64,000 nt of DNA from an uncultured Bacteroidota bacterium (GCA_903926385.1 CAIYIS010000025.1:4405-68404), one strand, 5' to 3'. Positions 3,001 to 18,003 are shown, counted from the stretch's first letter. Translations and numbers: made by a program. Notes: generated from the sequence alone by a model not told the origin.

Positions 3001-5300
3001 TACCCGAAGGTGTTGCGCAAAAATGTATAAGGCTGTTCTTGAGGCAAGGATGCCGGTATATTACTTCCTCGAGTCATATTGTAAGTTTGAAAGTAAGTAC
3101 CTGTTGCACAAGTGCTGCATGAATGATGAACAATGTGTGTCGATTTCTTTGCTATTACATCTAAACAGCTTTCATTGCAACAAATGTATTGTAATTCACA
3201 TGTAAAATTATCTGTAAATGCAGCACTTGGGCTTGATCCAACAGGTGGTGTCACAACTACCGGACAATCGCAGGTATATACAAGTGGTATAAAAACACAA
3301 TTAAGTGAAGACCCTAGGGGTAAAAGCGAAAAATCAATATCTATATAACCTGAGGTATATGCATATGGGACGTTGATTCCATCGCCAATGCATACACCTG
3401 GAGTTTCTGTCACAACCGCTTTAGGTTTATGTCCTATTCCAATCCCCCCATCGTATAAGGTAGTTTGAATTCCTGCTATTGCCGTTAATTCCATTTCAGC
3501 GGTATGATTTCCACTGTTTGCAGAAAATAATTGTGAACTTGAATAATCAAGATGATACCCAGCAGGTAGATTTATATGTATTCTGTCTTTACCATTTAAA
3601 CAATCAAACACATAATTTGTTCCAATCCATTCTTGACTAAATGAAGGACAAAAGCTGAAAACAAATCCTTGACCAGCTACCGCATCCGAAGGTCCTGTAA
3701 GGGCACTCGGACCTTCGGTATCCTTATAACCATAAAAAGCGTCCGGATAGGGAACCGTTGGAGTATAAATATTCGCAATATCAGCAACATGATAATTGTA
3801 AACGGTTGTGCCCGATGCATGATAAATCAAATTTTCACATTGATTCTGATAATAAGTATACGTGCTGATTAATAAGCTTTTCCCAATACCTCCTGAATTA
3901 TCTCGATACGTTTGTGTAAATGGATATGGGCAACTGGTGTTATAATTAAAATCAAAAGAGATATAAAAACTTTCTCCTTCATACAAATCATCCATTTTCC
4001 CGTCTCCGTCTGCATCGCACAGGCTGTGAAGTGCAGATGAACCAGGCAAATAGTTATACGCTGTTACAACCCATCCACTAAAATCCAAAATATAATAGGT
4101 ATAAGCATTTGTACCGGTTCCAAAATTAAATGGCCCTGATATTACTCCAGTTCCTGATAATGACGTTGTTGTGCCTGCTAATGTATTATGAACTGTAAAA
4201 CTGCCCGCATTTATTTGCCCTAATTCATTAAATGCCGATATATAAATCTTTAGGTTGGTTGCTTTTGCCCATCCCGGGTTGTCTGCTCCTGAAAAAGGGC
4301 CCCCGCTGTTCGTATATTTGAAGGTAAGGTTAGTGGCTCCGCTACTGCTGCAGACTTGATAAGAACCATTGTTTAACGATTGTGACGCATCTACAGTTAA
4401 ATTTGGCTGTCCAGTAACATTAAAATTTATGTTGGATGGAAATGAAAGTCCTGTTTGGCATACTGAAACCGTTGAGCAATCTGTCCCCCATGAATATATT
4501 ACGTCCCCTCCATGTCCATTGACAGAAGATGAACTGCATTTACCCCTTATACTTACATGAATAAAAACTGTGCTTAATTGAGGTACTGTAATATTTAGGA
4601 TGCTTGTTCCGCTTAATGCATTGCACGTAACTCCGGCAAATCCTGAGGAAACACTATAATCTATTGGAAGCAGGGCTAATGTGTTATTTTGGTAATAACC
4701 AAGGAAATCAACGTATGCAGCTTGTCCTGATAAATCAAGCACAGCACTTGTAATGTCTTCATTACCTGTATTTTCCAGCTTAATTACCCAATCCATTATC
4801 GTCCCAGTACTAATAAAACACGCATTGGCATTTGCTAAACTTGCAACAAGAAATGGTGCATCCACTTTCAGCGATGTAGGAGAGTTAGTATTATTTGAGA
4901 GGTTATAATTCATTATAGTATAGCCTGTCACTCCTCCATAGCAAGGTGAACTTATAGGTATATCTATAATAATACCCGTTGCAGGCGCATTTATTGAACA
5001 TGTAAATAGGGACTGTGCAGTTCCTGCTCCTGAAGCATATGTTATTACTGTAGGGCTGTAATTGCCATTATAAACAATACCGCAAGGGAACTGCAGAGCT
5101 ATATTGTTAATCGTATTTGTTGAGATGGTTAAATTATATCTTAAAAAATAATTGGTACAGGGCAACAAATCACCTATATGTTGTGTACCAGCAATTCCAA
5201 AATTGTCAGTATAAACAGTTTCAGAATTGATAGTAATTTGTGCTTTCCCATTCTGCAAAGCTAAAATTGCTATTGCTAAAAAAATAATAGTTTTTTTCAT
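1..5300 (-). CDS. Giant secreted adhesin-like protein with tandem Ig-like/beta-sandwich repeats (N-terminal ~1766 aa; C-terminus lies beyond window start)
   Basis: ATG at 5298-5300 (minus) gives MKKTIIFLAIAILALQNGKAQ, a Sec signal peptide. The minus-strand reading frame stays open to position 1. Thr/Gly/Ser/Asn-rich composition typical of Bacteroidota surface/gliding or T9SS cargo proteins. ~75-aa units (..ITGTWAPAV..GTTVYTFTPT.G.CA..) are repeated near the window start. The ORF track shows only short plus-strand shadow ORFs here, consistent with one long minus-strand ORF running off the edge. Confidence 0.7.
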   Translation of the reverse strand, partial: MKKTIIFLAIAILALQNGKAQITINSETVYTDNFGIAGTQHIGDLLPCTNYFLRYNLTISTNTINNIALQFPCGIVYNGNYSPTVITYASGAGTAQSLFTCSINAPATGIIIDIPISSPCYGGVTGYTIMNYNLSNNTNSPTSLKVDAPFLVASLANANACFISTGTIMDWVIKLENTGNEDITSAVLDLSGQAAYVDFLGYYQNNTLALLPIDYSVSSGFAGVTCNALSGTSILNITVPQLSTVFIHVSIRGKCSSSSVNGHGGDVIYSWGTDCSTVSVCQTGLSFPSNINFNVTGQPNLTVDASQSLNNGSYQVCSSSGATNLTFKYTNSGGPFSGADNPGWAKATNLKIYISAFNELGQINAGSFTVHNTLAGTTTSLSGTGVISGPFNFGTGTNAYTYYILDFSGWVVTAYNYLPGSSALHSLCDADGDGKMDDLYEGESFYISFDFNYNTSCPYPFTQTYRDNSGGIGKSLLISTYTYYQNQCENLIYHASGTTVYNYHVADIANIYTPTVPYPDAFYGYKDTEGPSALTGPSDAVAGQGFVFSFCPSFSQEWIGTNYVFDCLNGKDRIHINLPAGYHLDYSSSQLFSANSGNHTAEMELTAIAGIQTTLYDGGIGIGHKPKAVVTETPGVCIGDGINVPYAYTSGYIDIDFSLLPLGSSLNCVFIPLVYTCDCPVVVTPPVGSSPSAAFTDNFTCELQYICCNESCLDVIAKKSTHIVHHSCSTCATGTYFQTYNMTRGSNIPASLPQEQPYTFLRNTFGYYCPDPADPTSLYSYNSATIGGASLVGVSAGIPPLISLPLLDRVYPGDETEAKIEGSFNGVLNNFQSIYLQFRYNDLTTTLESQSANIFEMLSGSTVKVYDLTNGTLLTTLTTAPGQLTLTSGILSSLQEGQNINIPVSILQGLTTAGGFYFIADIHFALRTGPGISGTNEFFSHLPKAHHLIDFRADYMGVLSGSLLENHSCDDWGANLTVLQPTVTLEVENGLASFCEYQMDIKFRVVDALGINELNQADFPYEFRPYANINGDIEVQVPTGYTLSSAKYQYTQDNYHTLTTTLPSPPYALGASDNHFADGESHLVTLGIPITPTFIPGGFILSSSGLLGSLPKWPLIDGKYDPVSHLHPQELITLTFSVDCGNTVPSPTNFVVTAPGGYTENFQNPANYGISTTGPVTVVNSGGGILPSNPVTHYSPTITFAYPGLTTVNSMGIFHSSAFKICNSYVYPNGTSVFPNAVLFSPFINALLNYPELEVLYCDGPNAGTPIPGIAHIPQTPAGSGTFDINSLAGPSCRCFRLVSNFVTASSCLFPPEDYTLQLPVSLSYFCPGNAAECLAENTLMEFDFTPVAGSLYPSTVAEAGSNQSVCGTTATMAGNAPITNVETGLWTLISGTGTITDPNLETTGITGLGTGANVFQWTITHLPCPPSVSQVTITVDPVPTITNPILIQTICSGTLASLVPTSNVAGTIYAWTASLTTGTITGFSAAGTGNISETLTNPGNTSGSVTYVITPTGPGPTFCLGTPSDFVVTIDPQITPTFNAIANVCQNSAAPVLPLTSTNLPTITGTWAPAVSTATAGTTVYTFTPTAGECATTATLSITVNPQITPTFAAISNVCQFGTAPVLPLSSTNLPAITGTWAPAVNTAVAGTTVYTFTPTVGQCAISTPMDITVTPEQYIPEALSNPTTCNGNFTINGYDGAYTYQIIPILNDGSGNPAGVVTNISGGFIITWNNIAIAVGATVTVNIINGPCPQTITFVVLPCCNNGV
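270..715 (-). repeat. In-frame tandem ~225-bp domain repeats inside the adhesin gene; one copy is recoded with GC-rich codons
   Basis: Translated copies: ITPTFAAISNVCQFGTAPVLPLSSTNLPAITGTWAPAVNTAVAGTTVYTFTPTVGQCA and ITPTFNAIANVCQNSAAPVLPLTSTNLPTITGTWAPAVSTATAGTTVYTFTPTAGECA. The copy at ~500-715 uses gcc/gtg/ggc/ccg codons and is locally far GC-richer than the surrounding sequence. Confidence 0.6.
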
Positions 5301-5645
5301 AAGTTTATTTTTATTTGGTGTTGACTTATTTTAAATACATTTGTTTTCAATGTAAATTTTCGGAATAAATTTTTATTAGAAATAATTATTGAATTAAAAG
5401 CACTTATTAAGAATTTGAAATTTTACTAAATAAAAATTTAAGAAAAAGAAATTTATTTTTTGGTTGGAATTATTTGTTTGAAGGGTATTCAGAGAGATGT
5501 AATTCACAATTGAAGTGCGAGTTTTTTTAAATTTTATGATTGTTTTAATTATAAAAATCATTAATTATTTTTGAATTACAGCGTAAAAATATTAATAATA
5601 TTGAGATTTACAATTTATTTTAACAATTAAATTGCTTCCAAAAAT

Positions 5646-5673
5646 AAAAACCCGACATAATATCGGGTTTTTT
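5646..5673. terminator. Bidirectional rho-independent terminator hairpin (aaaaaCCCGAcataatatCGGGttttt)
   Basis: 5-bp GC stem flanked by an A-run and a T-run, immediately downstream of the stop of the minus-strand gene 5694..6626. Confidence 0.5.
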
Positions 5674-5693
5674 GTTGATGTTTAAGCATGAAA

Positions 5694-6626
5694 TTAAAAA
5701 GGTAAATCATCACTTCCATGCGGTATTTCCTCCAATTTGGATTCTGATTGTGTTGGGGTTTCATTTGATTGGTAACTTATATTCAGAATATAATCAGTAG
5801 CTTTTTGCGCAAGTGTAGAAGCATACACAATGAAACGCCTGTCGTTCTTGATTTTCTCCAACCATCCTTTCATGTCAGCTTCATTAGTTGAAAAGTGTTC
5901 TTTACCGAAACCGGCAAATGATTTTAAATAACAAGCACCAATTTCAGCCATGAATTCCTCTGTTGAATAAGGTTCTGCTCCGAATGCTTTTTGTTGCATT
6001 ACTTCTTTTCTGTTTACCCTGCTTTGGTGTCCGGTGCTGTGGACAAGCTCTACAAAGAGTTTACTGAAATAGCTTTCTTTGCTATCAAAACTTTCTTCTT
6101 TAGGAATGTTTACAAAATCAAGTAAAGGATTGTAATACGACTTGTTTTCTTTGTGTTTGATTTTTGGTAGGTTCTGCATGTGCATAATGATATCCTCACA
6201 AGCCTTTAATGGATTGTTTTGTAAATCTATCATTGGAATTTGAGTTTCAGGTATTCCATCGCATTGTGCAATGTTATATACACTGTTGTAACGAAGAAAT
6301 GGAACATTTGCTATTTGATCAGTCCCCTCGTCTTTTACTTCTAACCATTTCCAGAAAACAGTCATGTTACCTTTTTCACCTTCTTTGATTGTCGCCCCTA
6401 TTTCCTTTATCTGGTGAGAAGTCAGGAAATAGTTTTGTTCGTAACCAAGAGGATTGAGAAGCCATACATTAATTCCCCTGTAAGGTCTTCCTGTGATTAA
6501 GTTTTTAGGAAGCCCGGCATCTCCCCAAGGTTGTTGCCAAGGGACTATTCCCTTCTCAATTTGTTTTGTGATTCGGTTGTTTACCATTGCGTACACATCC
6601 GTTGTTGATGATTTTTTTTCATTCAT
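5694..6626 (-). CDS. ArdC-like antirestriction/ssDNA-binding protein (DUF1738 N-domain + zincin-like HExxH domain), copy 1
   Basis: Motifs VPWQQPWGDAGLPKNLITGRPYRGINVWLL (ArdC N-terminal domain) and HELVHSTGHQSRVNRKE (HExxH metallopeptidase-like). Paralogous to 12555..13598. Confidence 0.7.
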   Translation of the reverse strand: MNEKKSSTTDVYAMVNNRITKQIEKGIVPWQQPWGDAGLPKNLITGRPYRGINVWLLNPLGYEQNYFLTSHQIKEIGATIKEGEKGNMTVFWKWLEVKDEGTDQIANVPFLRYNSVYNIAQCDGIPETQIPMIDLQNNPLKACEDIIMHMQNLPKIKHKENKSYYNPLLDFVNIPKEESFDSKESYFSKLFVELVHSTGHQSRVNRKEVMQQKAFGAEPYSTEEFMAEIGACYLKSFAGFGKEHFSTNEADMKGWLEKIKNDRRFIVYASTLAQKATDYILNISYQSNETPTQSESKLEEIPHGSDDLPF

Positions 6627-6806
6627 TGCTTTATAGTATTAAATTGTGTGGAACTGTTTCCGAGATGTAGTATAGCTGGGGAAGAAATATATGCAATAGA
6701 CGAAAATTGCTATTTGTAGCAAGTGGTGGGGAAAAGAAATATCAATGAAATTTGTTGAATTTATAGCACTTTTAGCGAAATAATATTCACTAATAAATCA
6801 AAACAA

Positions 6807-7754
6807 ATGAACACTATTCAAAACAAGATTAAAGAATTTCTAAATCATTGTAAGTATGAAAAAAATCTAAGTAGTAAAACGATAAAGGCATATACAATAG
6901 ATTTGATGCAGTTTACAAAGTTTTTAATTGAGAAAAAATACTCTCTTGAAATATTGAATATTTCTAAAGTCGAAATTCGTGGATTCTTAGAATCAATTTC
7001 AGTTATGAAACCAAAATCAATAAAGAGGAAAATTGCAACAATTAAGGCCATGTTTAACTTCTTGGAGTATGAGGATTCAATTCTAATTAATCCATTTCGA
7101 AAAATGAGAATTAAGATTCAGGAAGAAAAAAAGTTGCCAAGAGTAATGGAATTAAAGGAAGTAAACTCTATGATGAAATTTGTGTATCGAGAAAATGGTT
7201 TATGCAAAGACTTTGATTCCTATAGCTATTCCGAAACATTAAGGAATACGGTTGTTATAGAGTTATTGTTTGCAACTGGTGCACGAGTTTCAGAAATTGC
7301 AAATCTCAGACTGGAAAATATAAATGTTTCAATTGGTGCTATAACCATTAAGGGTAAAGGAAACAAGGAGAGGATCATTGAAGTATGCAACAAAGAAACG
7401 CTTCAATTATTAAAAAGGTATCAGGGTCATTTCATTGATAAAATAACCGATTCTGGAGGCTTCTTTCTGATTAATCGTTTTGGGAACAAGCTTTCAGACC
7501 AGTCTATCCGTGGGATTGTAAAGAATGTATCAAAAAGTGTAGGAATTACAAAGCTAATTACACCGCATGTATTCAGGCATTCTCTGGCTACTCTCCTTTT
7601 AGAAAATGATGTGGATATAAAATATATTCAATCAATTTTAGGTCATAGTTCTATTATGACCACTCAAATTTATACTCATGTAAACCGCAAGAAACAAAGG
7701 CAAATACTCACTTTGAAACATCCTAGAAAGAATCTTATTATGATAGCTGATTAG
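6807..7754 (+). CDS. Tyrosine site-specific recombinase / integrase (XerD-like)
   Basis: C-terminal catalytic region: ...ARVSEIANLRLENI..., HVFRHSLATLLLENDVDIKYIQSILGHSSIMTTQIYTHV (R..H..R..Y box II signature). N-terminal SAM-like core-binding domain. Confidence 0.85.
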   Translation: MNTIQNKIKEFLNHCKYEKNLSSKTIKAYTIDLMQFTKFLIEKKYSLEILNISKVEIRGFLESISVMKPKSIKRKIATIKAMFNFLEYEDSILINPFRKMRIKIQEEKKLPRVMELKEVNSMMKFVYRENGLCKDFDSYSYSETLRNTVVIELLFATGARVSEIANLRLENINVSIGAITIKGKGNKERIIEVCNKETLQLLKRYQGHFIDKITDSGGFFLINRFGNKLSDQSIRGIVKNVSKSVGITKLITPHVFRHSLATLLLENDVDIKYIQSILGHSSIMTTQIYTHVNRKKQRQILTLKHPRKNLIMIAD

Positions 7755-7785
7755 TTTTCCTGAATGAAGGATAACTAAATATTAT

Positions 7786-8571
7786 ATGTTGTTTGCAATA
7801 GCAAAATTGATCCGTATTGAGAAGAGTATATCCAATTCACTTTCAATTTTTTTTCCGTTAATATACATTACTCGAAACATTTCTTTTAGTTTAAATTATT
7901 CTATTCCCATATTTTTTATGTTTGCGGCTGCTTTTGTCATAAATGATATAAATGATTTAGAAAAAGATAAAATCAATCATAGTAATAGAGCATTGCCTAA
8001 GAATGATATTTCTATTAATATGGCAATCATTTTATATTATTTCTTTCTTGCTGGTGCTTTATTATCAATTAAACTGACCGTTCCTTTTAATTATGTATTT
8101 ATTTACTTGCTTTATATTGTTCTGATTACGAATTATGACTATTTGAATATGGGATACCCATACTTGAAAAACCTATATGTTGTGCTGGTTTTTTCGATTC
8201 ACTTTGCAATACTGTATTTAATAATCCCAATAAATATATTTATATTGATAGGGTTGGTGATAAATATATTATGTAAGGAGATTTACATGGATATCAGAGA
8301 TATTAAAGGAGACGGAAAAACTTTTGCTAAAGTTATGGGTATAAAAAACACTGGTAAAGTAATTCTTTGTTTGCAATTTTTATTGTTGGCTTCTACATTT
8401 ACTGTACTCTATCAAGAATTTTCAATTATTCATTGTTTAGCTTTTATTATTGTTGTCATTACCTTTATTTCTAATGCTATAATTTGGTATCGATATAATG
8501 TACTTAATCTAAAATCCAACATAAATATTATTGTCTTTCAAAATTTTATTATTTATGGACTAATCTTGTGA
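7786..8571 (+). CDS. UbiA-family polyprenyltransferase (membrane)
   Basis: First Asp-rich motif FVINDINDLEKDKINHSNRALPKNDIS (NDxxDxxxD...RxLP) and second motif YMDIRDIKGDGKTFAKVMG (DxxDxxGDxxxGxKT). Eight or more hydrophobic helices. Very AT-rich codon usage. Confidence 0.65.
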   Translation: MLFAIAKLIRIEKSISNSLSIFFPLIYITRNISFSLNYSIPIFFMFAAAFVINDINDLEKDKINHSNRALPKNDISINMAIILYYFFLAGALLSIKLTVPFNYVFIYLLYIVLITNYDYLNMGYPYLKNLYVVLVFSIHFAILYLIIPINIFILIGLVINILCKEIYMDIRDIKGDGKTFAKVMGIKNTGKVILCLQFLLLASTFTVLYQEFSIIHCLAFIIVVITFISNAIIWYRYNVLNLKSNINIIVFQNFIIYGLIL

Positions 8572-9609
8572 TTATTTTAATGCTAAATCAGCAAGCATAA
8601 TAATAATCGTTATTATAAGGGGTAAATCATTAATAGCTAATCGTAGTTGATACTTCAATTCATCCCTTGATATTTTATCTTTTTCACTTAGATATTTGAT
8701 TTTCTCAAACTCGCTTATATTTTCTTTAGAGCTTAATTCTTTATTTAAAATTTCAATTTTAATATCTATTGATTTAGTATATAATTTTCTTAAAAGAGTT
8801 TTAGGATAATAATTAAAAACTATTAATACTGGCATTGCAATTATGGCAAGGTAAAACATAAATATTTTTACAGCTTGACCAAGTTCGGAACTATATTTAA
8901 ATGGACCATGATAATAACTATTAACTTGAAACCATACTGCAAGAACAGTAAATGTTGTTACTACATTTATGTAGGTTGAAATTCCTTCCAATTTATTATC
9001 ACTAAACAAATCTTCATTAAATTCAATATCCTCAATCGATTGCAACATTTGAGCAACATAGAAAATTTTTCTCCCAATATATACTGCACAACCATACATT
9101 GCACACCCATATATTATCATAGTGCTTTCCAAAAACTTATTTTCATAGGGAAACCTGGCAAAATAAAATAAAAGAAAAGAAAGTATAATGTGTATTGTAA
9201 CGATTCTCATAGAACTTTTGATTGAGAAATACGTTGTCTTGTGACGATGAAATATTTTATTCTCAGCCAACTTGGTTTCTCCGAAAACCCTAGATAATAA
9301 ATTTGGGATGTATTCTTGAGTTTTATAAATTTGATAGGTAAGCCCAAATAACAATCCTCCTGTTATAAAGCAATTAAAGCCAATAAAAAAGTCGTGTAGA
9401 TACTGATAAAACGAGTTTCTTAAAAAAATGTATGAAATTAATGAAATAATAAAACCATAAAGGAAGCTTATAAAAAAGCCAAGATAAACGGAGTTCATAA
9501 TAAAAAAAATATTTCTAGATTTGCTATCTTGTTTAGGGTCATTTAGCAACACATTATATTTCATGTATGACGTTAATTCCTTAAAGAGAGTTTGAGCAAA
9601 GTTTTTCAT
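8572..9609 (-). CDS. Polytopic membrane protein of unknown function with charged C-terminal coiled-coil tail
   Basis: 345-aa ORF with ~8 predicted TM segments, no recognisable catalytic motif. Its stop codon abuts the stop of the convergent UbiA-like gene (8571/8572). Confidence 0.4.
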   Translation of the reverse strand: MKNFAQTLFKELTSYMKYNVLLNDPKQDSKSRNIFFIMNSVYLGFFISFLYGFIISLISYIFLRNSFYQYLHDFFIGFNCFITGGLLFGLTYQIYKTQEYIPNLLSRVFGETKLAENKIFHRHKTTYFSIKSSMRIVTIHIILSFLLFYFARFPYENKFLESTMIIYGCAMYGCAVYIGRKIFYVAQMLQSIEDIEFNEDLFSDNKLEGISTYINVVTTFTVLAVWFQVNSYYHGPFKYSSELGQAVKIFMFYLAIIAMPVLIVFNYYPKTLLRKLYTKSIDIKIEILNKELSSKENISEFEKIKYLSEKDKISRDELKYQLRLAINDLPLIITIIIMLADLALK

Positions 9610-9793
9610 ATTGATAATATTTAGTTATCCTTTATTAACAAAAATCTAAAAAAATACGATTACGGCATAAATGTAAGGAAAATATAAATATCCTAAAAAT
9701 TCAATAAACGAACATAATGTATTTTGATGATATTTTATTTGCCATAATAGATTTCTTGCATTATAAATCTACTACAAGTATAATATAAATTAT

Positions 9794-10399
9794 ATGGTGA
9801 TTGATAAAAATGAATTCTTTAATAATTTTAAAAGAGCTAAATCACGATATAAAGAACTTCAAGATGTATCCATTACTTTACGTTTCGGTAAAAGTCCTTT
9901 TTTTACAATGCAAGCATTACTAGAACCAATATCACTTTTTCAAAAGAAAAAAAAATACTTTGTATTAATAAATTTGAAAAGAACAGATTTTCTTTCTCAG
10001 TTATCAGAGGATAATATTCTTGGTTGGTTTGGGCACGAATTAGCCCATATAGTAGAATATGAAAAATTGACCAATTTAAATCTTTTTGTTTTTGCAGTAA
10101 AATACCTGTTTGATTCAAAATTCAGATACTTCGTTGAACGAAGTACTAATGCATTTGCCTTCAATAATGGTTTCGCGCTTGAATTATTTTTGGTTTGGAA
10201 GAAATTTATCTCAATGGATATTAAAGATATAAATTACAAAAAGTATATACTTGAAAATTATTGTCCACATTGGGCTGACATCAAAGAAACCGCACAAAAT
10301 TTCGGCATAAGTAAACAAATTTATGAGTCAATGAAACAGACCAAGGTAGTTAATTTTAAGACTACTGCAAAGATAAAGAACAAAATTAAGTCAAAATAA
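9794..10399 (+). CDS. HExxH-motif protein, possibly ImmA/IrrE-family metallopeptidase-like
   Basis: WFGHELAHIVEYEKL (HExxH plus downstream E). It sits in a mobile element that also encodes an XRE-type HTH protein. The family assignment is an inference from the motif only. Confidence 0.35.
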   Translation: MVIDKNEFFNNFKRAKSRYKELQDVSITLRFGKSPFFTMQALLEPISLFQKKKKYFVLINLKRTDFLSQLSEDNILGWFGHELAHIVEYEKLTNLNLFVFAVKYLFDSKFRYFVERSTNAFAFNNGFALELFLVWKKFISMDIKDINYKKYILENYCPHWADIKETAQNFGISKQIYESMKQTKVVNFKTTAKIKNKIKSK

Positions 10400-10400
10400 A

Positions 10401-10434
10401 CCCCTCTTCGTATTTTAAACGATAGAGGGGTTTT
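10401..10434 (+). terminator. Rho-independent terminator (CCCCTCTtcgtattttaaacgatAGAGGGGtttt)
   Basis: 7-bp GC-rich stem plus T-tract directly after the stop of 9794..10399. Confidence 0.6.
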
Positions 10435-10456
10435 GAAATAAGGTTGAAAAATATGC

Positions 10457-10581
10457 TTCTACGTCATCGTAACGTAATGAAATCACGATTATTCAATCCT
10501 TGCTTACTATTTGAATCCCATATTCTGAAAAATATAATTCTACGTCATCGTAACGTAATGAAATCACGATTATTCAATCCT
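10457..10581. repeat. Two perfect 44-bp direct repeats (TTCTACGTCATCGTAACGTAATGAAATCACGATTATTCAATCCT) separated by a 37-bp spacer
   Basis: Copies at 10457-10500 and 10538-10581 are identical by eye. Each contains the dyad TACGT-N7-ACGTA. Confidence 0.8.
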
Positions 10582-10848
10582 AGGTATTCAATTAAATTAT
10601 ACATACTTTGAATCATTTTGCAATGTATACGCTACATCTCAACAATTTAGACAACCAAAAACACATATTTAACAAATGAATCAATTAATAATGTTGGTGT
10701 TATACCCTTGCGAAAAATCAGTAATAGCATCAGGAAGTCTAAATTATTAACATTTTTTAATGAAATAATGTTAATAATATACCAAAATTGATTTATAAAA
10801 ATCGGGAAATAACATATCTTTGTCGAAGAAAACTATCCAAATAACTGA

Positions 10849-11304
10849 ATGGACGAAAATTTAATTAAATCTTTTAAATGGGTTGGGTTACTTTTTTCAT
10901 TTGCTTTTATTACTGAAAGCCTTTGTATTTATATTAAGTACGGACTAGTGAATACCTATCCATTACCAACTGGAATTAATAGTTGGTACGAAATGGCTGT
11001 GGATATGGAAAGGTTAATGATATACTCGATAATAATCATGAGTGCCATTTTAACTGATGTGATTTTAAATCCGAACCGATTTATGACATGGAAGATATGG
11101 AGTACTTGGACAGGGTTAATATTATTAGCCTCACTTATCACCTTTTATATTCTACACAAAGTATTTGAACAAAGCTGTTTACTTAAATTTAAGCAATCTG
11201 CTCCTCGAGCTGAGGAAATTTTACATTACATCGAATCGTCTTTGCCTCTTGGGGCTTTTTTAATTTCCGTTGTGTGGAAGTATTCTATTAACGTCACAGA
11301 ATAA
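10849..11304 (+). CDS. Small membrane protein, unknown function
   Basis: 151-aa ORF with 4 hydrophobic helices. No motif recognised. Confidence 0.4.
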   Translation: MDENLIKSFKWVGLLFSFAFITESLCIYIKYGLVNTYPLPTGINSWYEMAVDMERLMIYSIIIMSAILTDVILNPNRFMTWKIWSTWTGLILLASLITFYILHKVFEQSCLLKFKQSAPRAEEILHYIESSLPLGAFLISVVWKYSINVTE

Positions 11305-11474
11305 AAAGTGTTTCATTTAATTTTAAATAGCGCTTTGTTTTTGGTAATTACTTATTTCATTTATGAATTTTTTCATGATATCAAATCCATTAAAGAAATA
11401 AAACGAAAGAAATTTAAAAGAAGGTCAACAAAGACAACTAATACGAAACTTAAAGAAAAAATATACCAGAATAA

Positions 11475-12314
11475 ATGAATTTATTATTTTTTGTTATTTT
11501 CTTTTTAGGATTCTGCACATTCTTTTTTTTAGTTTTCATTACTGACATAAAAAAATTAAGTGGATTCCGTAAAGCAGCCGCTCAAGAAAACGAATTATTT
11601 AATTTGAAAGGTGGCAATTTTAGTTATTCACATCGAATTGACTATAACGAGAAGGATGAAGGGATATTACAAACCAACATTGATCAGTACTTTAAAATCA
11701 TGAAAAACGCTATAAAAAAAGCGGAAAGTGAAATTATTATTGTTGATTATACAAAACATGGAAAACATTTAGAGAAAATTGATTCAGATATTCATTTGTT
11801 TTATAATATCTCTCGGCATTATGAAGATTATTATTGTGAATTAGAGAAAATCATCACCAATAAAGAGGTTGAATACAACAGAATAATTTGTCTTCCTCCA
11901 TCGCAAAAGAACCTTAAAGATTTAAGTAAAATTTTATATAATGCTGTAAGATATGTATTTTATGGCACTTATAAACACCTTAAAAAACTTAAAAATAATC
12001 CCAATTTTAATTTATATATCTTACCCGGCCCAATTCGGACGAATAGTTTAATAATCATTGATAAGAAAATAGTACTATTTGAGTATGATTCCTACGGCCC
12101 TAATTTAGAATGTCGACCTGATTTACTTTTTATTCATTTTGACGATAATTTAGCAACTAATGAATATAATAAGGTTAAAGAGAGGATACATAATATTTCA
12201 AAAATTAATGTCGATGATTTATTAGCGGTGTATCTTGAAAAGATAATAAATCCAAAAACTTCGGTTGACGCATTCGGCAAAAAGAATATTGCAAAAACAG
12301 ATTTGACTAAGTAA
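11475..12314 (+). CDS. Hypothetical protein with N-terminal TM anchor
   Basis: 279-aa ORF. N-terminal hydrophobic helix (LLFFVIFFLGFCTFFFLVFI) followed by a soluble domain. No recognised family. Confidence 0.4.
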   Translation: MNLLFFVIFFLGFCTFFFLVFITDIKKLSGFRKAAAQENELFNLKGGNFSYSHRIDYNEKDEGILQTNIDQYFKIMKNAIKKAESEIIIVDYTKHGKHLEKIDSDIHLFYNISRHYEDYYCELEKIITNKEVEYNRIICLPPSQKNLKDLSKILYNAVRYVFYGTYKHLKKLKNNPNFNLYILPGPIRTNSLIIIDKKIVLFEYDSYGPNLECRPDLLFIHFDDNLATNEYNKVKERIHNISKINVDDLLAVYLEKIINPKTSVDAFGKKNIAKTDLTK

Positions 12315-12552
12315 CTTGTTTTAGCTTAAATTCCCTATAGCTTTCCAAATACAACTCATTCATCAAGGTTGCATAGAGAGCACTTAACTTTATCAGATTC
12401 TCTACACTCGGCATTGCCAGCCCCTTTTCCCATTTCGAAATTCTACTCGCAGATTTTAATCCGAGTAGTTTAGCAACTTCATTTTGTTTGTATCCCATTA
12501 ACAGCCTGTGCTTCCTTAAACTATTTTTATAACGTTTAGTTTTTTTCTTCAT
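12307..12552 (-). CDS. XRE-family (Cro/C1-type) helix-turn-helix transcriptional regulator
   Basis: LLMGYKQNEVAKLLGLKSASRISKWEKGLAMPSVENLIKLSALY is a canonical HTH_3 pattern. Immediately upstream of and co-oriented with ArdC-like copy 2. Confidence 0.7.
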   Translation of the reverse strand: MKKKTKRYKNSLRKHRLLMGYKQNEVAKLLGLKSASRISKWEKGLAMPSVENLIKLSALYATLMNELYLESYREFKLKQVT

Positions 12553-12554
12553 TG

Positions 12555-13598
12555 CTATCGTTCCATTGCTACAGTCTGTTCCTCTCCTCTCTCCCGTGTT
12601 TTCTGTAAATCGTTTTCTCGGCTATTTGTTTTGTCTTTTTTGTTTGTGTCCTTTGTTGATGGTTCTAATTCTTTTTCTTCTGGTTCAATTTCTTTTTCTT
12701 TCTCCTGAATATTCAAAATATAATCAGTCGCCTTTTGTGCCTGTGAACTGGCATAGACAATAAACTTCTTATCCTTTTTCAGTTTAGTAAGCCAGTTTTG
12801 AATATAGGCAGCGTTGTTCTCCAATTTTTCAATCGGAATGCCTGCAGATGATTTCAGATAAGAAGCACCCATTTCTGCGGTTAGTTCTTCAATAGCATAC
12901 TTTTCAGAACCAAACGCATTAGCATCGGTTATTTCTTTTCTGTTTAATCTGCTTTGGTGTCCACTACTGTGGACTAATTCATGGAAGAGTGAACCGTAAT
13001 AACTTTCACTATCCTTGAAAGTTTCCATTTTAGGCATATTCACAAAGTCTTTTTCTTTGTGATAAAAAGCTTGTTGTTCTTCATGCTTAATTTCAGGACG
13101 ATTCGGCATTTCCTTGATTATCTTTTCACATTCTTGAATCGGATCATTTTGTTTTTCTGCTATAGGTGGAAGTTTTGATTCTGGTATTCCTGTACATTGG
13201 GATATGTTGAATACTTTGTAGTATCTAAGGAGTGGTTTCTTTTCAATTTTCTTTGTTTCGGGATTTTCCTTCTCTATCCATTTCCAGAAAACAATGATAT
13301 TTCCCTTCTCATCTTTTTTAATACTTCCTCCTAGTTCTTTTACCTGTTTAAAGGTCAGAAATTCGTTCTGAGAGTATTTTAGTGAGGATAACAGCCAAAC
13401 ATTAACTCCTCTGTATTTATTGCGTGTAATCAAGTTTTTTGGCTGTCCTGCATCTGCCCAAGGTTGTTGCCAAGGTACAACGCCTTTTTCAAGATGTTCA
13501 ATGATTCGGTCAGTCACCATTTGATATACATCTGGTGCTGTCTTTGGTTTTTCATTTGTGTCTTTAGTTTGATTTTGGTTTGTATTAGTTGTGGTCAT
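12555..13598 (-). CDS. ArdC-like antirestriction/ssDNA-binding protein (DUF1738 + HExxH), copy 2, with extra N- and C-terminal charged extensions
   Basis: VPWQQPWADAGQPKNLITRNKYRGVNVWLL and HELVHSSGHQSRLNRKE. Collinear with copy 1 at roughly 50% identity by eye. Confidence 0.7.
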   Translation of the reverse strand: MTTTNTNQNQTKDTNEKPKTAPDVYQMVTDRIIEHLEKGVVPWQQPWADAGQPKNLITRNKYRGVNVWLLSSLKYSQNEFLTFKQVKELGGSIKKDEKGNIIVFWKWIEKENPETKKIEKKPLLRYYKVFNISQCTGIPESKLPPIAEKQNDPIQECEKIIKEMPNRPEIKHEEQQAFYHKEKDFVNMPKMETFKDSESYYGSLFHELVHSSGHQSRLNRKEITDANAFGSEKYAIEELTAEMGASYLKSSAGIPIEKLENNAAYIQNWLTKLKKDKKFIVYASSQAQKATDYILNIQEKEKEIEPEEKELEPSTKDTNKKDKTNSRENDLQKTRERGEEQTVAMER

Positions 13599-13645
13599 AG
13601 TTTTATATTTTAAATAGGTTTATTTATTAATAATTAAATTGTCTT

Positions 13646-14300
13646 TTATCGGTCAATATCTCTTTCTTGCTCTTCTGATTTGTCTGCCCGTAAGTCCTCT
13701 AATTCCTGTTGTCTTTCTTCGGCTTTGTTGTCGGTTGGTCCGATTTCATTGGATTTTTCTGTTTCATTTTCAATATCTTTTTCTGTTTCGATATGTTTTA
13801 ACTCATAGTAATAATGAGGCGAATGACTTTTTGTTACTGGCTCCAACTCTTTTGTTTCTTTTTAGTGGCATAGTATGGAGATGGTTTTCCTTTGGTTTGG
13901 TCTGAAAATACATTTAGACTAATTTTCTCCTTTTTCTTCTTGATTTTAACCGGCAGTTTTTTTAGTGTTTTTTCAATTCCTACAATAATTTTTGTTGCTA
14001 CATGGTGATATAGGTCAAATGGTGTCCTTATCTCCTTTCGGTTTTCTTCTTTCCCTTTCATGTTTATCTTGTTTTTGAAATGACTCTACTTTTTGTTTTT
14101 GACCTTATTTCATTTAGGGATTTTTCCCGTCTTTCTAATTCAGAAGGGCTGACCATACATTCACAGTATCCTGCATCTTCTGTTTGAATTTCGGAGTAAT
14201 AAATGCTTTCGATGTTTTCTGATTCTATTTCCTGATCGTTTTGGTAACTATTGTCTTTATTGAGTTCAGTGTCCTTGGTTTTATTTTCTTCGATTTCCAT
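13646..14300 (-). other. Three consecutive small highly charged ORFs (66, 75, 78 aa). Possibly small mobilization-associated proteins or a frameshifted remnant
   Basis: ORFs 13646..13846, 13834..14061 and 14064..14300 are head-to-tail on the minus strand between ArdC-like 2 and the relaxase. Low-complexity E/K-rich sequences with no motif. Confidence 0.25.
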
Positions 14301-14329
14301 TTTTAATTTATTTAGTTCTGATTTTTTAT

Positions 14330-15175
14330 TTATCTGCTTCTTTGGATATTTCTATTATTCATTTTTTCTCTTACTCTGTTTAATTCATTCGCTCTTGTTT
14401 TTGTCTTATTCAAATCTTGTATTCTTTCTTCTGTATATCCGAGACGATTGAAACGAAATTTGTGTTTACCGAATATGATACCTGTTGTTTTACCGCTTCT
14501 GTTGTATGTTTCAATTCCGCATTCTTTTAGTTTGTTGTAAAAATCTTCTATTGAGTTCGATGCTTTGTAACATGTTTTCAGCATTCCTATAACCTGTTCC
14601 TTTTCTGATTGCCTTCCTGTTCTTAATTTAAATTGATATTCTTTATCACTCGTTACTGCTTTTTCTTTCTTCCAATGTTCTACTACTGATTTTGATAATT
14701 CAGGATAATGTTTCTGCTGGTATTCTTGTATGTCTTTTTTGAGTTTTCTGAATTCACCTTTCGACATTCGCATGGCTTTGCCTGTGTGATATTCCAGTCC
14801 TGATGCACAAATATGAATGTGGTAATGGTTTTTATCAAAATGAGGAGCGATGACATATATTCCTTTTGGGTTTCTCCTTTGAATGTATTCCCTTGCCATT
14901 GCTTCCATCTTTTCAATGGATATATGTTTTGCATCTTCTTTGTGCCAGGAAAGTATTTCATGGGTAAGGATGACACTGTCTTTTCTTTTGTGTTTCCGGT
15001 ATGTTTCATTCTTTTTAAATTGTTTCTCCCAGCTTTCTATATTTCTTCCTTTCAGATTATGCGTTAGCATAAAGGTGTTTCCTTCTTTGTCAACTAAACG
15101 GTCTTTATCATTGGTTATGTATTCAAGTAGTTTTTTGTAGTTTGGTCTTTTATATGTTTTGACTTTGACTATCAT
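14330..15175 (-). CDS. Mobilization relaxase (MOB_P-type / Bacteroides MobB-like, PF03432)
   Basis: Histidine triad HFDKNHYHIHICAS (HxDxxxxHxH). N-terminal region MIVKVKTYKRPNYKKLLEYI is typical of the relaxase family start. Confidence 0.75.
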   Translation of the reverse strand: MIVKVKTYKRPNYKKLLEYITNDKDRLVDKEGNTFMLTHNLKGRNIESWEKQFKKNETYRKHKRKDSVILTHEILSWHKEDAKHISIEKMEAMAREYIQRRNPKGIYVIAPHFDKNHYHIHICASGLEYHTGKAMRMSKGEFRKLKKDIQEYQQKHYPELSKSVVEHWKKEKAVTSDKEYQFKLRTGRQSEKEQVIGMLKTCYKASNSIEDFYNKLKECGIETYNRSGKTTGIIFGKHKFRFNRLGYTEERIQDLNKTKTRANELNRVREKMNNRNIQRSR

Positions 15176-15647
15176 TTTTTTGTAAAGGAGGATTTCTAAA
15201 GAAATTATTGATTGCCTCTTCTAATGCGGTTATCTTCTTTTCAATTTCCTCTAGTTTTCGTTGACTCTCCCAATGATATTTTTCTTTTGGTTTTACTATG
15301 CTTTGTATCTGGTTTAAACAGTCAGAAAGGATTTGTTCTAAATACGCTATTTGCTCAGGATACGGGACAACAAAGGTCTGACTGATATAGGCAAGCACCG
15401 CCTGATGAATAAATCGGGTAATGGTCATTTTATGCCTTTCTGCCTCCCTCTGTACTTTGTCGTATTCCCCGTTATTTGAAAAATTAACGGTGAATTCGGG
15501 TTTACTTTTCCGTTGTTCCTGCTTGTATTTCAAAAGGTATTCTTTTCGATATGTCTTTTTTGCAAACTTGATTTCTTCGTCTGTTCCGTTTTCCAATACT
15601 CCTGTTGACTCCAGATATTCCCACATCTTTCCTGTTCGATTACTCAT
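15150..15647 (-). CDS. Relaxosome accessory protein (MobC/ribbon-helix-helix family)
   Basis: KMTITRFIHQAVLAYIS-type C-terminal motif. Overlaps the relaxase start by 26 bp and the T4CP end by 8 bp, suggesting a translationally coupled operon. Confidence 0.5.
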   Translation of the reverse strand: MSNRTGKMWEYLESTGVLENGTDEEIKFAKKTYRKEYLLKYKQEQRKSKPEFTVNFSNNGEYDKVQREAERHKMTITRFIHQAVLAYISQTFVVPYPEQIAYLEQILSDCLNQIQSIVKPKEKYHWESQRKLEEIEKKITALEEAINNFFRNPPLQKNDSQSQNI

Positions 15648-17085
15648 TGTCTTTCTTTTTAAGTGGTAAAATCGGTATGATCTCCATATTTGCAGATGTC
15701 TCTATTTCTTTGGGTGGAATCAAACTGTATTTTAAATAATGGCTTCGTTTGTAATATGGTTTCAGTCTTGCCATGATTGGTGGTTTGTTTCCGCAAATGA
15801 GTAATGCTCGTGTTTCTTTCATTGTTCGTATTTCATCGTTGGTCATTAAGGGTCGTACTACTTTTACTTTCTTGTCATTTTCGTATTCATATTTACCGAG
15901 TGTTTGTTCTAATTCTTTGGATGTTTCCAGTGATGTTCCTGTAAAATACATCTTAGCAAAACAGTTTGCTTTGATTGCATCTCCGTCATTTTTTCCATAG
16001 TGGTGAATGAGCTGACTGAAATCTTGTACCAAGAGCATTATTCCCGAACGGTGTTTTCTGACATTGGCAACTGCTAGTGGAAGGGTCGGAAGATTGAGTG
16101 AGGAGGCTTCATCTATTAAAAGAAAAATGTCTTTTTCATTTTGATTTGGAAAACGGGAAAGCAGAAAGGCAAAGAATTGTTCGAAGAAAAGGGACGTAAG
16201 AACGCTATAATATTTTTGATCGGCAACGGAGTTTTGAATATACAGGGCTGTTGGTTTGTCTCTGAATTCCTGTAAATTCAGATTATCCTTTGAGGTTACT
16301 TTGGCTACTGCTTCATCATTAAATATTTGAAGTGCTGCCTTACAGGTGGCAATTACTCCGCTTCTTACTTTTTCATCATAAGCAATGAAAGATTTGTATT
16401 CGGCAAATAATACCTCATCTGCATGTTTACTGAAAAGCGCATCTACTGATTCGGGATTGCCTCCTAATTGGTTTAACAGTTGTCTGACATTATATAGGTT
16501 TTGATATTGGACTTCTTGTTTCTTTAGAATGGTAATGAGCATGGCAAGTAAGGAGCTGGATTGTGTATTCCAGAAAGGGTCTTTGGTTTTACCTCCCAAA
16601 GCTGTTTCAACTAGCATGGATGCTACCTTTTGAATTTCAGAGGATGAGTTCGCACGTTGCAGTGGATTGTAACCGGAAGATTTTTCAGGTTTTGCAAAGT
16701 TTAATACTTTAATGTCATATCCTTTTTGTTGCAGGTATCCTGCACTTTTGGAAAAGAGTTCTCCCGATGGGTCGTGTATGACAAAACTTCCGTTCATAGA
16801 GTACAGGGATGGGAAAAGGACAACGCTAGATTTTCCTGTTCCTGTTCCTCCTACTATCAAGGCATTTTGGTAGGATAGCTTAATACTTAAATTCCGTGTG
16901 CCTGTTAAGCAGAAACCGAAATATCTTCGTGATAGTAATGTTCCCTGTCTTACAAATTCCGCATTGTACTCATTTTTCTTTTTAGGTATGGCTGTAATGG
17001 CAAAGGTGATGAGTTCTACTAATAGTTTGAAAAAACTTTCAAGTAGTTTGATTAATAGGGTAAAGAATTGTTCGATGATTATCAT
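15640..17085 (-). CDS. Type IV coupling protein (VirD4/TraG/MobC family ATPase)
   Basis: Walker A VGGTGTGKSS, Walker B LLIDEASSL, and a LLVQDFSQLIHHYGK motif. N-terminal TM anchor. Confidence 0.75.
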   Translation of the reverse strand: MIIIEQFFTLLIKLLESFFKLLVELITFAITAIPKKKNEYNAEFVRQGTLLSRRYFGFCLTGTRNLSIKLSYQNALIVGGTGTGKSSVVLFPSLYSMNGSFVIHDPSGELFSKSAGYLQQKGYDIKVLNFAKPEKSSGYNPLQRANSSSEIQKVASMLVETALGGKTKDPFWNTQSSSLLAMLITILKKQEVQYQNLYNVRQLLNQLGGNPESVDALFSKHADEVLFAEYKSFIAYDEKVRSGVIATCKAALQIFNDEAVAKVTSKDNLNLQEFRDKPTALYIQNSVADQKYYSVLTSLFFEQFFAFLLSRFPNQNEKDIFLLIDEASSLNLPTLPLAVANVRKHRSGIMLLVQDFSQLIHHYGKNDGDAIKANCFAKMYFTGTSLETSKELEQTLGKYEYENDKKVKVVRPLMTNDEIRTMKETRALLICGNKPPIMARLKPYYKRSHYLKYSLIPPKEIETSANMEIIPILPLKKKDNE

Positions 17086-17279
17086 TTGTATCGTGTATTA
17101 GTTGGTTTGGTAATAATGAACTGCAGGAATAGGTTGATTTGTTGTAAGGTAAGTTCTGCTAATCGCAGGACTCCCCATATACATATCACAATCAGTTTCA
17201 GGATAATTTTCAGGATGGTCCAAAGGATATTTTTCATTGTATTTTCTTTTTAAGGTTCTACTTCATTCTTTTTTGTTTT

Positions 17280-17993
17280 CTATATATTCAGGTTTGCAGA
17301 GATGGTTACGGTTGCTCCTTTATTTTGTAAAATCGTTTTGTAAAATTCAGAAGCGATTTTAAAGTCCGAATCGCTTTCAGGGTTTACGGGTTGAAAGACA
17401 AAATGTATTTCAATTCCTTTTAAATCCTGTATTTGTTGCATTTGCTCCAATTGTGTTTGTATTGACTCTGGTTTTGTTTTGAGAATCTTAATGGTCTGTT
17501 TATTATAAAAAGACAATTCCTTTGTGTTTTCCATTAAGTCGGAGTAAATAATCAATACTCTTTTTTGTGAATTACTTCGACTTAATTGGTTTAGCTTTCG
17601 TACCAATGGGAGATAGATAGAAGAGTTCCGTTTACCTATCGTGTCTTTATTACTGTTTTCAATAATTTTGGTTGCCCGATTCTTGAAATTTTTGATTTCC
17701 TTTTCTCTTTCCAGTTCATTTGATAACCATTGATTTTGTATATTAATCTTTGCTTCATTGATTGGGTTATAACTGACATCTGTAATATTCCCAAAAGAAA
17801 AGTTTGATCCATTCCATTGATTGTTTTGTAAATCAAAAAGGCTGAGAATTTCATCGGCATTTGGTTTGGCTATACTCTTTTCGGTGACATCTCTCAATAC
17901 AACGATTTCAGTTGTGGTTGGTTTTACGGATGTGCAGGACACAATGAACATTATTGCTATTAGTGTGATAATGATTATGGATGTAGTTTTCAT
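17280..17993 (-). CDS. Lipoprotein of unknown function (element cargo)
   Basis: Signal peptide plus lipobox MKTTSIIIITLIAIMFIVSCTS. No catalytic motif. Confidence 0.45.
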   Translation of the reverse strand: MKTTSIIIITLIAIMFIVSCTSVKPTTTEIVVLRDVTEKSIAKPNADEILSLFDLQNNQWNGSNFSFGNITDVSYNPINEAKINIQNQWLSNELEREKEIKNFKNRATKIIENSNKDTIGKRNSSIYLPLVRKLNQLSRSNSQKRVLIIYSDLMENTKELSFYNKQTIKILKTKPESIQTQLEQMQQIQDLKGIEIHFVFQPVNPESDSDFKIASEFYKTILQNKGATVTISANLNI

Positions 17994-18003
17994 TTTTGTT
18001 TTA

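Follow-up and report, generated by a model that had tools for sequence, protein, structure and literature searches.

A probable DNA inversion switch that pairs a UbiA-family prenyltransferase with a seven-helix membrane protein

The 64,000-nt stretch of DNA analysed here, which we call the window, comes from an uncultured Bacteroidota bacterium (GCA_903926385.1, CAIYIS010000025.1:4405-68404). A preliminary description, made from the sequence, had singled out five open reading frames (ORFs) as an uncharacterized cargo module on a mobilizable element: a UbiA-family prenyltransferase of 261 amino acids (aa), a polytopic membrane protein of 345 aa that converges on it, an HExxH protein of 201 aa and two further proteins of 151 and 279 aa. 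All five ORFs were found at the coordinates and lengths that it gave (Table 1). Our analysis shows that the first two, together with the neighbouring gene for an Xer-like tyrosine recombinase, form a conserved unit. The region is probably a site-specific DNA inversion switch, in which the UbiA protein and its convergent partner, a channel-like protein with about seven transmembrane (TM) helices, would be exchanged in the operon of the recombinase.

Inverted sites at two convergent starts

The UbiA gene and the gene for the 345-aa partner protein are exactly enclosed by the longest inverted repeat in the region. Its two 31-nt arms are 87% complementary and share a perfect 19-nt core, AAGGATAACTAAATATTAT, which is present only twice in the 64-kb window; by chance 0.19 copies would be expected. 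The left arm reaches to the UbiA ATG, and 4 nt separate the right arm from the ATG of the 345-aa gene. Between them the two ORFs lie stop to stop, as had been noted before, and the gap that we measured is 0 nt. On the other side of the left arm, the stop codon of the recombinase gene lies 15 nt ahead of the 16-nt site core. No second recombinase and no extra copy of the site were found in the window.

A scan of an alignment of the partner protein against species genomes and Joint Genome Institute (JGI) metagenomes returned 56 loci, from Flavobacterium, Mucilaginibacter, Balneolaceae, Alpha- and Gammaproteobacteria, Desulfovibrio, Acidobacteriota, Thermoanaerobaculia and others (loci and contigs are cited below by L numbers). 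In nearly all of them, the longest exact inverted repeat flanking both starts was the same motif. A pattern search yielded 36 inverted site pairs with 29 distinct 16-nt cores, and the consensus G-A-T-A-A-C/T-T-N-N-N-R-A-T-T-A-T followed by G or C, that is, dyad arms GATAA/TTATC around an asymmetric centre. This site resembles the inner arms of dif (ATAA...TTAT). Positions 8-11 differ between loci, but the centre is identical within each of the 36 pairs, as strand exchange requires. These paired inverted sites have the anatomy of recombinase sites.

Of 72 arms, 34 have a start codon that overlaps the core (as TTATG), and in another 23 the codon begins 1 nt behind the core. Because the site overlaps the ribosome-binding and start region, both ORFs receive the same translation-start region, and everything upstream of it would be exchanged by inversion. 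In our reading the centre of the site is purine-rich and apparently Shine-Dalgarno-like in Proteobacteria and Acidobacteriota (GAGA, AGGA, GGAG), and AT-rich in Bacteroidota.

Both orientations of the segment

Metagenome contigs from the window's own population were found as those carrying identical genes, by exact-protein look-up. L001 consists of window positions 7731-9649 followed by the reverse complement of window positions 1-7785; identity to the window is 99.7% over the first block, which holds the segment, and 100% over the second. In L001 the recombinase gene, at its 3' end, runs through the core into the 5' end of the 345-aa gene, as would be expected after inversion. Two contigs, L002 (1902 nt) and one of 1988 nt, contain the segment by itself and both end exactly at 9632; L002 also breaks at 7785/7786. 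L010 and another contig, of 12 kb, stop at 7785. At these positions, 7785 and 9632, the two orientations part. L011 and nine similar contigs have the orientation of the window.

Related DNA gave the same picture. L003, the closest relative element, is 65% identical in UbiA, 77% in the partner and 57% in the recombinase, and only about 36% in the relaxase and the coupling protein of the type IV secretion system (T4SS). Its segment is inverted relative to the recombinase when compared with the window, and a perfect 21-nt inverted repeat, AGGATAACTAATTATTATCAT, stands at the homologous positions. Here too there is a segment-only contig, L005. L024 and L025, from a Nanopore assembly of one sample, have segments that are 99.9% identical to each other, and the same 935-nt flank (100% identical) adjoins the partner end in L024 and the UbiA end in L025. 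Contig L059 matches L030:8020-9793 with 100% identity and extends exactly from one site to the other; L046, L058 and L060 also end at sites on both sides, and L029, L042, L048, L061 and L065 end at a site on one side. Terminal repeats were seen at contig ends in L029 (1-108 and 1854-1961, 108 nt) and L066 (18-146 and 1890-2018, 129 nt; the same 146 nt stand at both ends of this contig). In each contig one and the same flank has been assembled onto the two ends of the segment, and we read this as an assembler's rendering of a population of mixed orientation rather than as true long repeats. Two features that define an inverton, inverted sites with an identical centre and both orientations on the same flanks, are present in this material.

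These contigs also bear on a different explanation, in which the inverted repeats are a shared operator or 5' leader that co-regulates the two genes and the alternative junctions are short-repeat artefacts of assembly. The repeats do coincide exactly with the translation initiation regions, multi-k short-read assemblers can produce chimeric joins where a sequence is repeated in inverted orientation, and one of the two expected junctions is missing from the window's population (see below). However, contigs from many independent data sets and assemblers break exactly at the core, although its 16-21 nt fall short of the final assembly k-mers; in one sample, long-read contigs have an identical flank attached now to one end of the segment and now to the other; and related genomes have opposite orientations with their breakpoints at the sites. 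The dif-like dyad arms, with a centre that varies between loci but not within a pair, and the adjacent tyrosine recombinase also argue against an operator, which would not need a different centre for each segment in genomes with two segments. We therefore consider this explanation barely credible.

A conserved three-gene unit

About 50 loci, from Bacteroidota, Proteobacteria, Acidobacteriota, Desulfobacterota and others, have the pair, flanked by inverted dif-like sites (GATAAC-T-N3-RA-TTAT). Wherever the sequence continues beyond the 3' end of the partner, UbiA is convergent with the partner. The median distance between the two stop codons is 6 nt; it is 60 nt or less in 42 of 47 loci, and in 16 the stops overlap or abut. 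A homologous recombinase adjoins the segment in most related loci. Either gene can be proximal to it, the partner in 15 loci and UbiA in 12, and the recombinase gene may be co-directional with, or divergent from, each of them (Table 1). When it is co-directional, its stop codon falls between -9 and +92 nt from the core, often with a TGA that overlaps T-GATAAC. When it is divergent, a spacer of 84-173 nt separates it from the segment, and this spacer could hold a bidirectional promoter.

The same survey bears on the earlier proposal that the five ORFs belong together, as a static accessory operon set carried by the mobilizable element without any switching. The five genes are indeed adjacent, AT-rich and on a mobilizable element, and an HExxH homologue with 50% identity is also adjacent in L003. 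Five-gene co-occurrence was not found, however: the 151-aa and 279-aa genes have no counterpart in L003, the HExxH protein has no match in the loci that were checked with the window proteins (L014-L032) or in L006, and an HExxH homologue is found elsewhere in an unrelated context. Constant co-occurrence is confined to UbiA and the polytopic protein. Both orientations of this pair are seen, and the unit of UbiA, partner and recombinase also exists outside mobile elements. We consider a static five-gene set very improbable. In L016-L018 the three-gene unit lies in plain chromosomal surroundings, with a DPPIV-type peptidase gene on one side and Omp85 and RecQ genes on the other. Of the idea of mobilizable-element cargo, the part that describes horizontally carried accessory genes stands, and the genes are not housekeeping genes of menaquinone or ubiquinone synthesis; the part that makes them inherently cargo of a mobile element does not, given these chromosomal loci.

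Some loci have more than one segment. A second inverton in L015 (Mucilaginibacter gotjawali, AP017313), directly beside the recombinase and bounded by a 27-nt perfect repeat, swaps a 1128-aa AAA_16/STAND NTPase against a GT2 glycosyltransferase and a small P-loop protein. The second inverton of L026 (Desulfovibrio caledoniensis, CP195092) swaps a 1193-aa SIR2-STAND protein, which has PADLOC SIR2 matches and a weak Avs2 match, against a carbamoyltransferase. A second segment of 2.7 kb in L023 swaps a 550-aa against a 351-aa protein, both of unclear family. All three second segments have sites with the same arms as the UbiA segment and a different centre. It appears from these sites that one recombinase can serve several segments, and the different centres should keep the segments from recombining with each other.

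L006 is a different wiring of the same parts. Its two sites face outward and bracket the recombinase and a 505-aa Schlafen/AlbA_2-domain protein with a helix-turn-helix (HTH) domain; the ORFs behind these sites are a 906-aa STAND NTPase and UbiA. Enlarged UbiA segments of 2.2-2.65 kb were seen in L031, L032, L053 and L060.

The recombinase

Domain profiles and the catalytic R-K-HxxR-H-Y positions identify the protein encoded upstream of UbiA as a tyrosine recombinase. Pfam Phage_integrase (PF00589) and Phage_int_SAM_1 (PF02899) match it with 130.9 and 48.1 bits, respectively, and its catalytic-type motifs are ARVSE(159), KGKGNKER(182), HVFRHS(254), LGHSS(278) and QIYTH(287), so that the catalytic positions are intact. 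The best NCBIfam models are XerC and XerD, at 235.6 and 233 bits against equivalog cut-offs of 335 and 330. A score below these cut-offs, on a mobile element and beside its own paired sites, is not what a housekeeping XerC or XerD would present. The resemblance to the XerC/XerD-dif system is limited further by the sites, which are inverted pairs around cargo genes and unrelated to chromosome dimer resolution, and by the location of the module on a mobile element or at variable chromosomal places. Nor does the system look like an integron, since the integron-integrase model TIGR02249 gave 119 bits against a cut-off of 265 and the sites are inverted, 16-17 bp long and not attC-like. We also considered whether the recombinase is the integrase of the element and rejected this: the window has two copies of the site, with no third or fourth copy at the ends of the element.

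Two unrelated membrane proteins

The 261-aa protein was called a UbiA enzyme with both Asp-rich motifs intact in the preliminary description, which had made the call depend on alignment of these motifs in a profile search. The alignment was found and the call holds. Pfam PF01040 matches residues 42-236 with 54.9 bits (cut-off 34.2; E = 1e-14), and the motifs NDINDLEKD and DIRDIKGD are 116 residues apart. Across full-length family members the first motif, N[D/N]xxDxxxD, is kept in 48 of 48 and the second, DxxDxxGD, in 47 of 48, at a fixed spacing of 116-120 residues, which indicates purifying selection. The nearest solved structure is the DGGGP synthase of M. jannaschii (6m31; E = 2.4e-4), from the archaeal branch of the superfamily, and both motifs align to it. 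The scores of the window protein lie far below the NCBIfam equivalog cut-offs of the named enzymes that were tested (DGGGP synthase, MenA, UbiA, ChlG and DPPR synthase; cut-offs 269-353). The best was 55.6 bits against 269 for PRK12884, with the others lower, so the protein is not an orthologue of any of these enzymes. This branch of UbiA is rare, with 6 clusters in a word-indexed search of 5.8 billion sequences.

Several observations touch on the company that UbiA keeps. In L031 and L032 a third gene of 219-229 aa stands behind UbiA within the segment. It has a QI[AV]DDxLD motif reminiscent of prenyl-diphosphate enzymes, and Pfam polyprenyl_synt does not match it significantly (E = 0.17); this is a weak hint of a possible isoprenoid link. 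In some loci of Acidobacteriota type, the switch is flanked by a membrane enzyme of the fatty-acid-hydroxylase family and a CMAS/UbiE-type methyltransferase, which hints at a lipid or prenyl-quinone-like pathway around UbiA. In L007, a distant UbiA homologue (32% identity) lies directly upstream of an Xer-like recombinase gene and overlaps it, in ordinary chromosomal surroundings and with no partner gene; this could be an ancestral or an unrelated adjacency of UbiA and recombinase.

The 345-aa partner had been described as an 8-TM protein. About seven TM helices fit better, as the AlphaFold2 (AF2) model (predicted local distance difference test score, pLDDT, 79) has seven long helices, of which the last is split, and a simple hydropathy scan gave only 4 strongly hydrophobic spans. 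Its profile had no significant match among PDB sequences. We compared the model with the traits of the 7TMIC superfamily, namely seven TM helices, long TM4-6, a split TM7 and structural similarity to known members. With moderate evidence, the fold is most like these 7-TM ion channels of the insect odorant and gustatory receptor type, and this superfamily, which includes the prokaryotic 'Bac7TMICs' (bioRxiv 10.1101/2023.08.30.555482), is the nearest likeness that we found. The partner family had 23 clusters in the same search of 5.8 billion sequences and 65 representatives among 1.84 billion proteins; for 13 of the 23 clusters the longest contig is only 1.4-1.95 kb.

No homology was detected between UbiA and the partner. 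On this ground an hsdS-like swap of variants was rejected.

Proposed mechanism and its alternatives

In the mechanism that we propose, the Xer-like recombinase would recombine the two inverted dif-like sites of 16-17 bp, which lie 5' of the two convergent starts or overlap them. A flip of the 1.86-kb segment between them (7767-9632) would exchange the ORF that stands behind the recombinase gene, in its operon, with the ORF that faces the distal flank, and the site would supply an identical ribosome-binding region and start codon to both. The transcript of the proximal gene would run antisense through the distal gene. The outcome would be two heritable and reversible cell types, differing in the membrane protein made from the recombinase-linked expression slot. 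The adjacent recombinase is the probable invertase. As for expression, the proximal gene would be ON and the distal gene OFF or lower. The proximal gene is likely to be expressed with the recombinase because of the operon-like spacing, and because the spacer of the divergent loci could hold a bidirectional promoter. The distal gene is expected to be silent or reduced because the convergent stops are so close that the proximal transcript runs antisense through it.

Several points weigh against this model. In short-read assemblies of the window's population the junction of recombinase and partner is present, and the reciprocal junction of UbiA and distal flank was not seen; several of these assemblies may go back to shared read sets, and inversion in this strain appears in assembled contigs rather than in reads or an experiment. 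None of the flanks examined contains the Bacteroidota -7 box TAnnTTTG, and a generic scan for sigma-70 promoters and terminators gave matches that were not above chance, so that no promoter was located in either flank. In about half of the related loci the distal-flank gene reads towards the segment; the distal gene, too, may thus be transcribed, and expression need not be strictly ON/OFF. No recombinase lies within 5-8 kb in L056, L067 and L030. Finally, the strict pairing of two unrelated proteins suggests a common process, which a simple model of alternatives does not explain.

Some of these points would be accommodated if the inversion is real but both flanks have promoters, in which case both genes would always be expressed and the flip would swap only their regulation or level. 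In the window and in L003 the distal flank is intergenic and lies beside a divergent gene, so a bidirectional promoter region is plausible there; a co-directional gene reads into the distal ORF in L016, L022, L028, L032, L054 and L067; and the strict co-occurrence of UbiA and partner would fit proteins that work together. On the other hand, the convergent ORFs overlap or abut and leave no space for a terminator, so that simultaneous transcription would collide and form antisense RNA. The recombinase side is the only feature of the flanks that is conserved across phyla, and identical ribosome-binding and start sequences on two convergent ORFs are the design of known expression-site switches. 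Considering these data, we regard constant expression of both genes as unlikely and prefer the exchange of the two genes in the operon of the recombinase.

What the exchange is for can be suggested only tentatively. Its purpose may be bet-hedging between two membrane or envelope states, possibly in relation to phage. This suggestion comes entirely from the companion invertons with STAND and glycan-enzyme genes and from the defence-type or mobile neighbours of some loci (Fic, nucleases, a Schlafen/AlbA_2-domain protein, Uma2 and PLD); other loci have ordinary metabolic genes as neighbours. Nothing was found that points to peptide prenylation, which had been mentioned as one possible function. 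A broader and equally doubtful picture is that of a pan-bacterial, horizontally mobile and self-contained toggle, with a site that doubles as ribosome-binding site and start codon, between a membrane prenyltransferase and a bacterial homologue of insect chemoreceptor-type ion channels. With companion invertons that swap STAND or SIR2-STAND immune NTPases against glycan-modifying enzymes (GT2, carbamoyltransferase), the whole might amount to a phase-variable choice between envelope remodelling and channel- or NTPase-based effectors of suicide or immunity.

Relation to known inversion systems

By analogy, the switch would work like the G segment of phage Mu and the Xer1 switches of mycoplasmas and, more distantly, like hsdS invertons. 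It differs from them in exchanging whole genes for unrelated membrane proteins, in the position of its site in the start region, in being a portable three-gene unit found across phyla and in the multiple centres of its segments. The G segment of Mu (invertase Gin) and the C segment of P1 (Cin) likewise carry convergent alternative gene sets on an invertible segment next to the invertase gene, and orientation picks the set that is read from a fixed expression signal outside. However, Gin and Cin are serine invertases that work with an enhancer and Fis, whereas the system described here has a tyrosine recombinase. The alternatives in Mu and P1 are homologous tail-fibre variants with a shared constant N-terminal part, in contrast to the two unrelated complete ORFs found here, and the crossover site here is in the ribosome-binding and start region.

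In the vpma, vsp and vsa switches of Mycoplasma, the gene for an Xer-like tyrosine recombinase (Xer1 or HvsR) also lies beside the locus. Short sites in the 5' untranslated leaders allow inversion to bring promoterless ORFs into a single expression site. These loci shuffle paralogous families of surface lipoproteins within one genus, whereas the present unit is a fixed pair of non-homologous integral-membrane proteins, occurs across phyla and has a site that overlaps the start codon.

Invertons of type I restriction-modification hsdS genes with Xer-like recombinases are described in S. pneumoniae (PsrA/CreX) and B. fragilis (PMC7096588, PMC7672463, PMC7641763). There too a tyrosine recombinase adjoins inverted repeats and inversion produces heterogeneity in the population. 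The hsdS repeats are inside the coding sequence and swap half-genes (target-recognition domains), whereas whole genes are exchanged here. The pipeline of Milman et al. (PMC9881135) required repeats of at least 22 bp with one inside a coding sequence, and with these filters the UbiA/7-TM class would not be reported. In the paper library that was searched we found no paper that links UbiA with phase variation, inversion and a recombinase, and the three-part unit is apparently undescribed.

The switch would add a widespread and compact class of phase variation, in which whole unrelated genes, rather than promoters or gene fragments, are swapped at a site within the translation-start region. It would also give a first genetic handle on two orphan families of membrane proteins, a rare UbiA branch and a candidate bacterial 7TM ion channel, which are always paired and may be mutually exclusive, and which the companion invertons link to STAND-type immune proteins and surface-glycan enzymes. 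A short site with a segment-specific centre, under one recombinase, might serve as a toggle in synthetic biology.

Neighbouring genes and the surrounding element

The genes downstream of the segment lie outside the switch. G+C is 0.25-0.29 across 8-12 kb and roughly 0.35-0.40 in the chromosome on either side, in agreement with the extreme AT-richness reported before. The 201-aa HExxH protein had been taken for an ImmA-like protein. It is better described as M48/minigluzincin-like: it has the HExxH motif and a downstream Glu as third ligand in a gluzincin catalytic fold, its AF2 model (pLDDT 86) is nearest to selecase, proabylysin and M48 peptidases, and ImmA/IrrE (M78) is absent from its Pfam, NCBIfam and PHROG matches at E <= 1. 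The catalytic domain has the same fold as the minigluzincins (selecase, proabylysin) and the M48 family (BepA, HtpX, Ste24). The Pfam M48 match is below threshold, at 14.9 against 20.3, and the protein differs from these families in being soluble, with an extra C-terminal helical part, and in not being conserved with the switch. Its lack of matches in the loci checked and the homologue in an unrelated context led us to reject it as a core component.

The 151-aa protein, previously given four TM helices, has 3 strong hydropathy spans. For the 279-aa protein, hydropathy supports the membrane anchor that had been proposed, as one N-terminal segment. Neither the HExxH profile nor the 279-aa protein had a significant match among PDB sequences, and PADLOC, PHROGs and NCBIfam gave nothing informative on the four proteins other than UbiA. 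On the roles in defence or lipid-linked modification that had been proposed, PADLOC-DB had no match for any of the five proteins or for the recombinase; only a neighbouring HTH protein matched generic HTH models.

Table 1 Positions of features in the window and in related loci
Feature	Position	Strand	Remarks
Window: 3' part of giant gene	1 to ~5300	-	2685 aa in L001/L009
Window: ArdC-type gene	5694-6626	-	
Window: Xer-like tyrosine recombinase, 315 aa	6807-7754	+	candidate invertase
Window: inverted-repeat left arm	7755-7785	+	recombination site; perfect core 7767-7785, 16-nt consensus core 7770-7785
Window: UbiA-superfamily membrane prenyltransferase, 261 aa	7786-8571	+	recombinase-proximal in the window
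Window: polytopic membrane protein, 345 aa, ~7 TM	8572-9609	-	constant convergent partner of UbiA
Window: inverted-repeat right arm	9614-9644	-	perfect core 9614-9632
Window: distal flank	9645-9793	.	intergenic between segment and divergent HExxH gene; possible second expression site
Window: soluble HExxH metallopeptidase-like protein, 201 aa	9794-10399	+	M48/minigluzincin fold; neighbour, outside switch core
Window: 56-nt direct repeats	10445-10500, 10526-10581		
Window: small membrane protein, 151 aa	10849-11304	+	specific to this element lineage; outside switch
Window: 279-aa protein, N-terminal membrane anchor	11475-12314	+	specific to this element lineage; outside switch
Window: mobilisation backbone	12307-19059	-	
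Window: HTH_3 regulator	12307-12552	-	part of backbone
Window: ArdC-type gene	12555-13598	-	
Window: relaxase	14330-15175	-	part of backbone
Window: T4SS coupling protein	15640-17085	-	part of backbone
Window: 348-aa ORF	19331-20377		looks like thiL
L006: outward-facing sites	2763-2780, 5794-5811		
L007: UbiA homologue upstream of recombinase	1381-3101		
L015: second inverton, inverted repeat	12463-12489, 17463-17489		27-nt perfect repeat
L023: second segment	5178-7900		
L026: second inverton, inverted repeat	9846-9868, 15078-15100		
L031: third gene	4267-4926	-	
L032: third gene	8963-9652	-	
L054: hydroxylase/methyltransferase neighbour gene	8941-9690		
L056: hydroxylase/methyltransferase neighbour gene	3524-4129		
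L067: hydroxylase/methyltransferase neighbour genes	7730-8299, 4820-5677		
Recombinase co-directional, directly upstream of partner			L003, L016, L022, L031, L041, L045, L051-L053
Recombinase co-directional, directly upstream of UbiA			window, L027-L029, L032, L036, L054, L062, L064, L069
Recombinase divergent from partner			L021, L040, L044, L047, L050, L057
Recombinase divergent from UbiA			L073, L076

Several features of the element were noted in passing. Two ArdC-type genes with ArdcN and zincin MPTase-PolyVal domains, 57% identical to each other, bracket the block of recombinase, switch, HExxH, 151-aa, 279-aa and HTH genes, which suggests a composite or rearranged element. In L003, unlike the window with its ArdC genes, the recombinase is directly beside the relaxase gene. 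The mobilisation backbone consists of an HTH_3 regulator, a relaxase, a T4SS coupling protein and unknown ORFs. A search of a plasmid database returned no DNA similar to the region. The element is bounded by a giant gene of type IX secretion system (T9SS) type and by a 348-aa ORF that, from a reading of its sequence, looks like thiL. The giant gene has PKD_5 and Por_Secre_tail domains, as a T9SS substrate, and its ORF runs off the window, so no ORFs are listed there. In the sequence analysis it is this gene, together with the relatives, that points to Bacteroidota as host. The HExxH and 151-aa genes are separated by 450 nt of non-coding DNA, which holds two direct repeats of 56 nt, 96% identical and 81 nt apart; L012 and L013 are contigs that begin near them, so this repeat also breaks assemblies.

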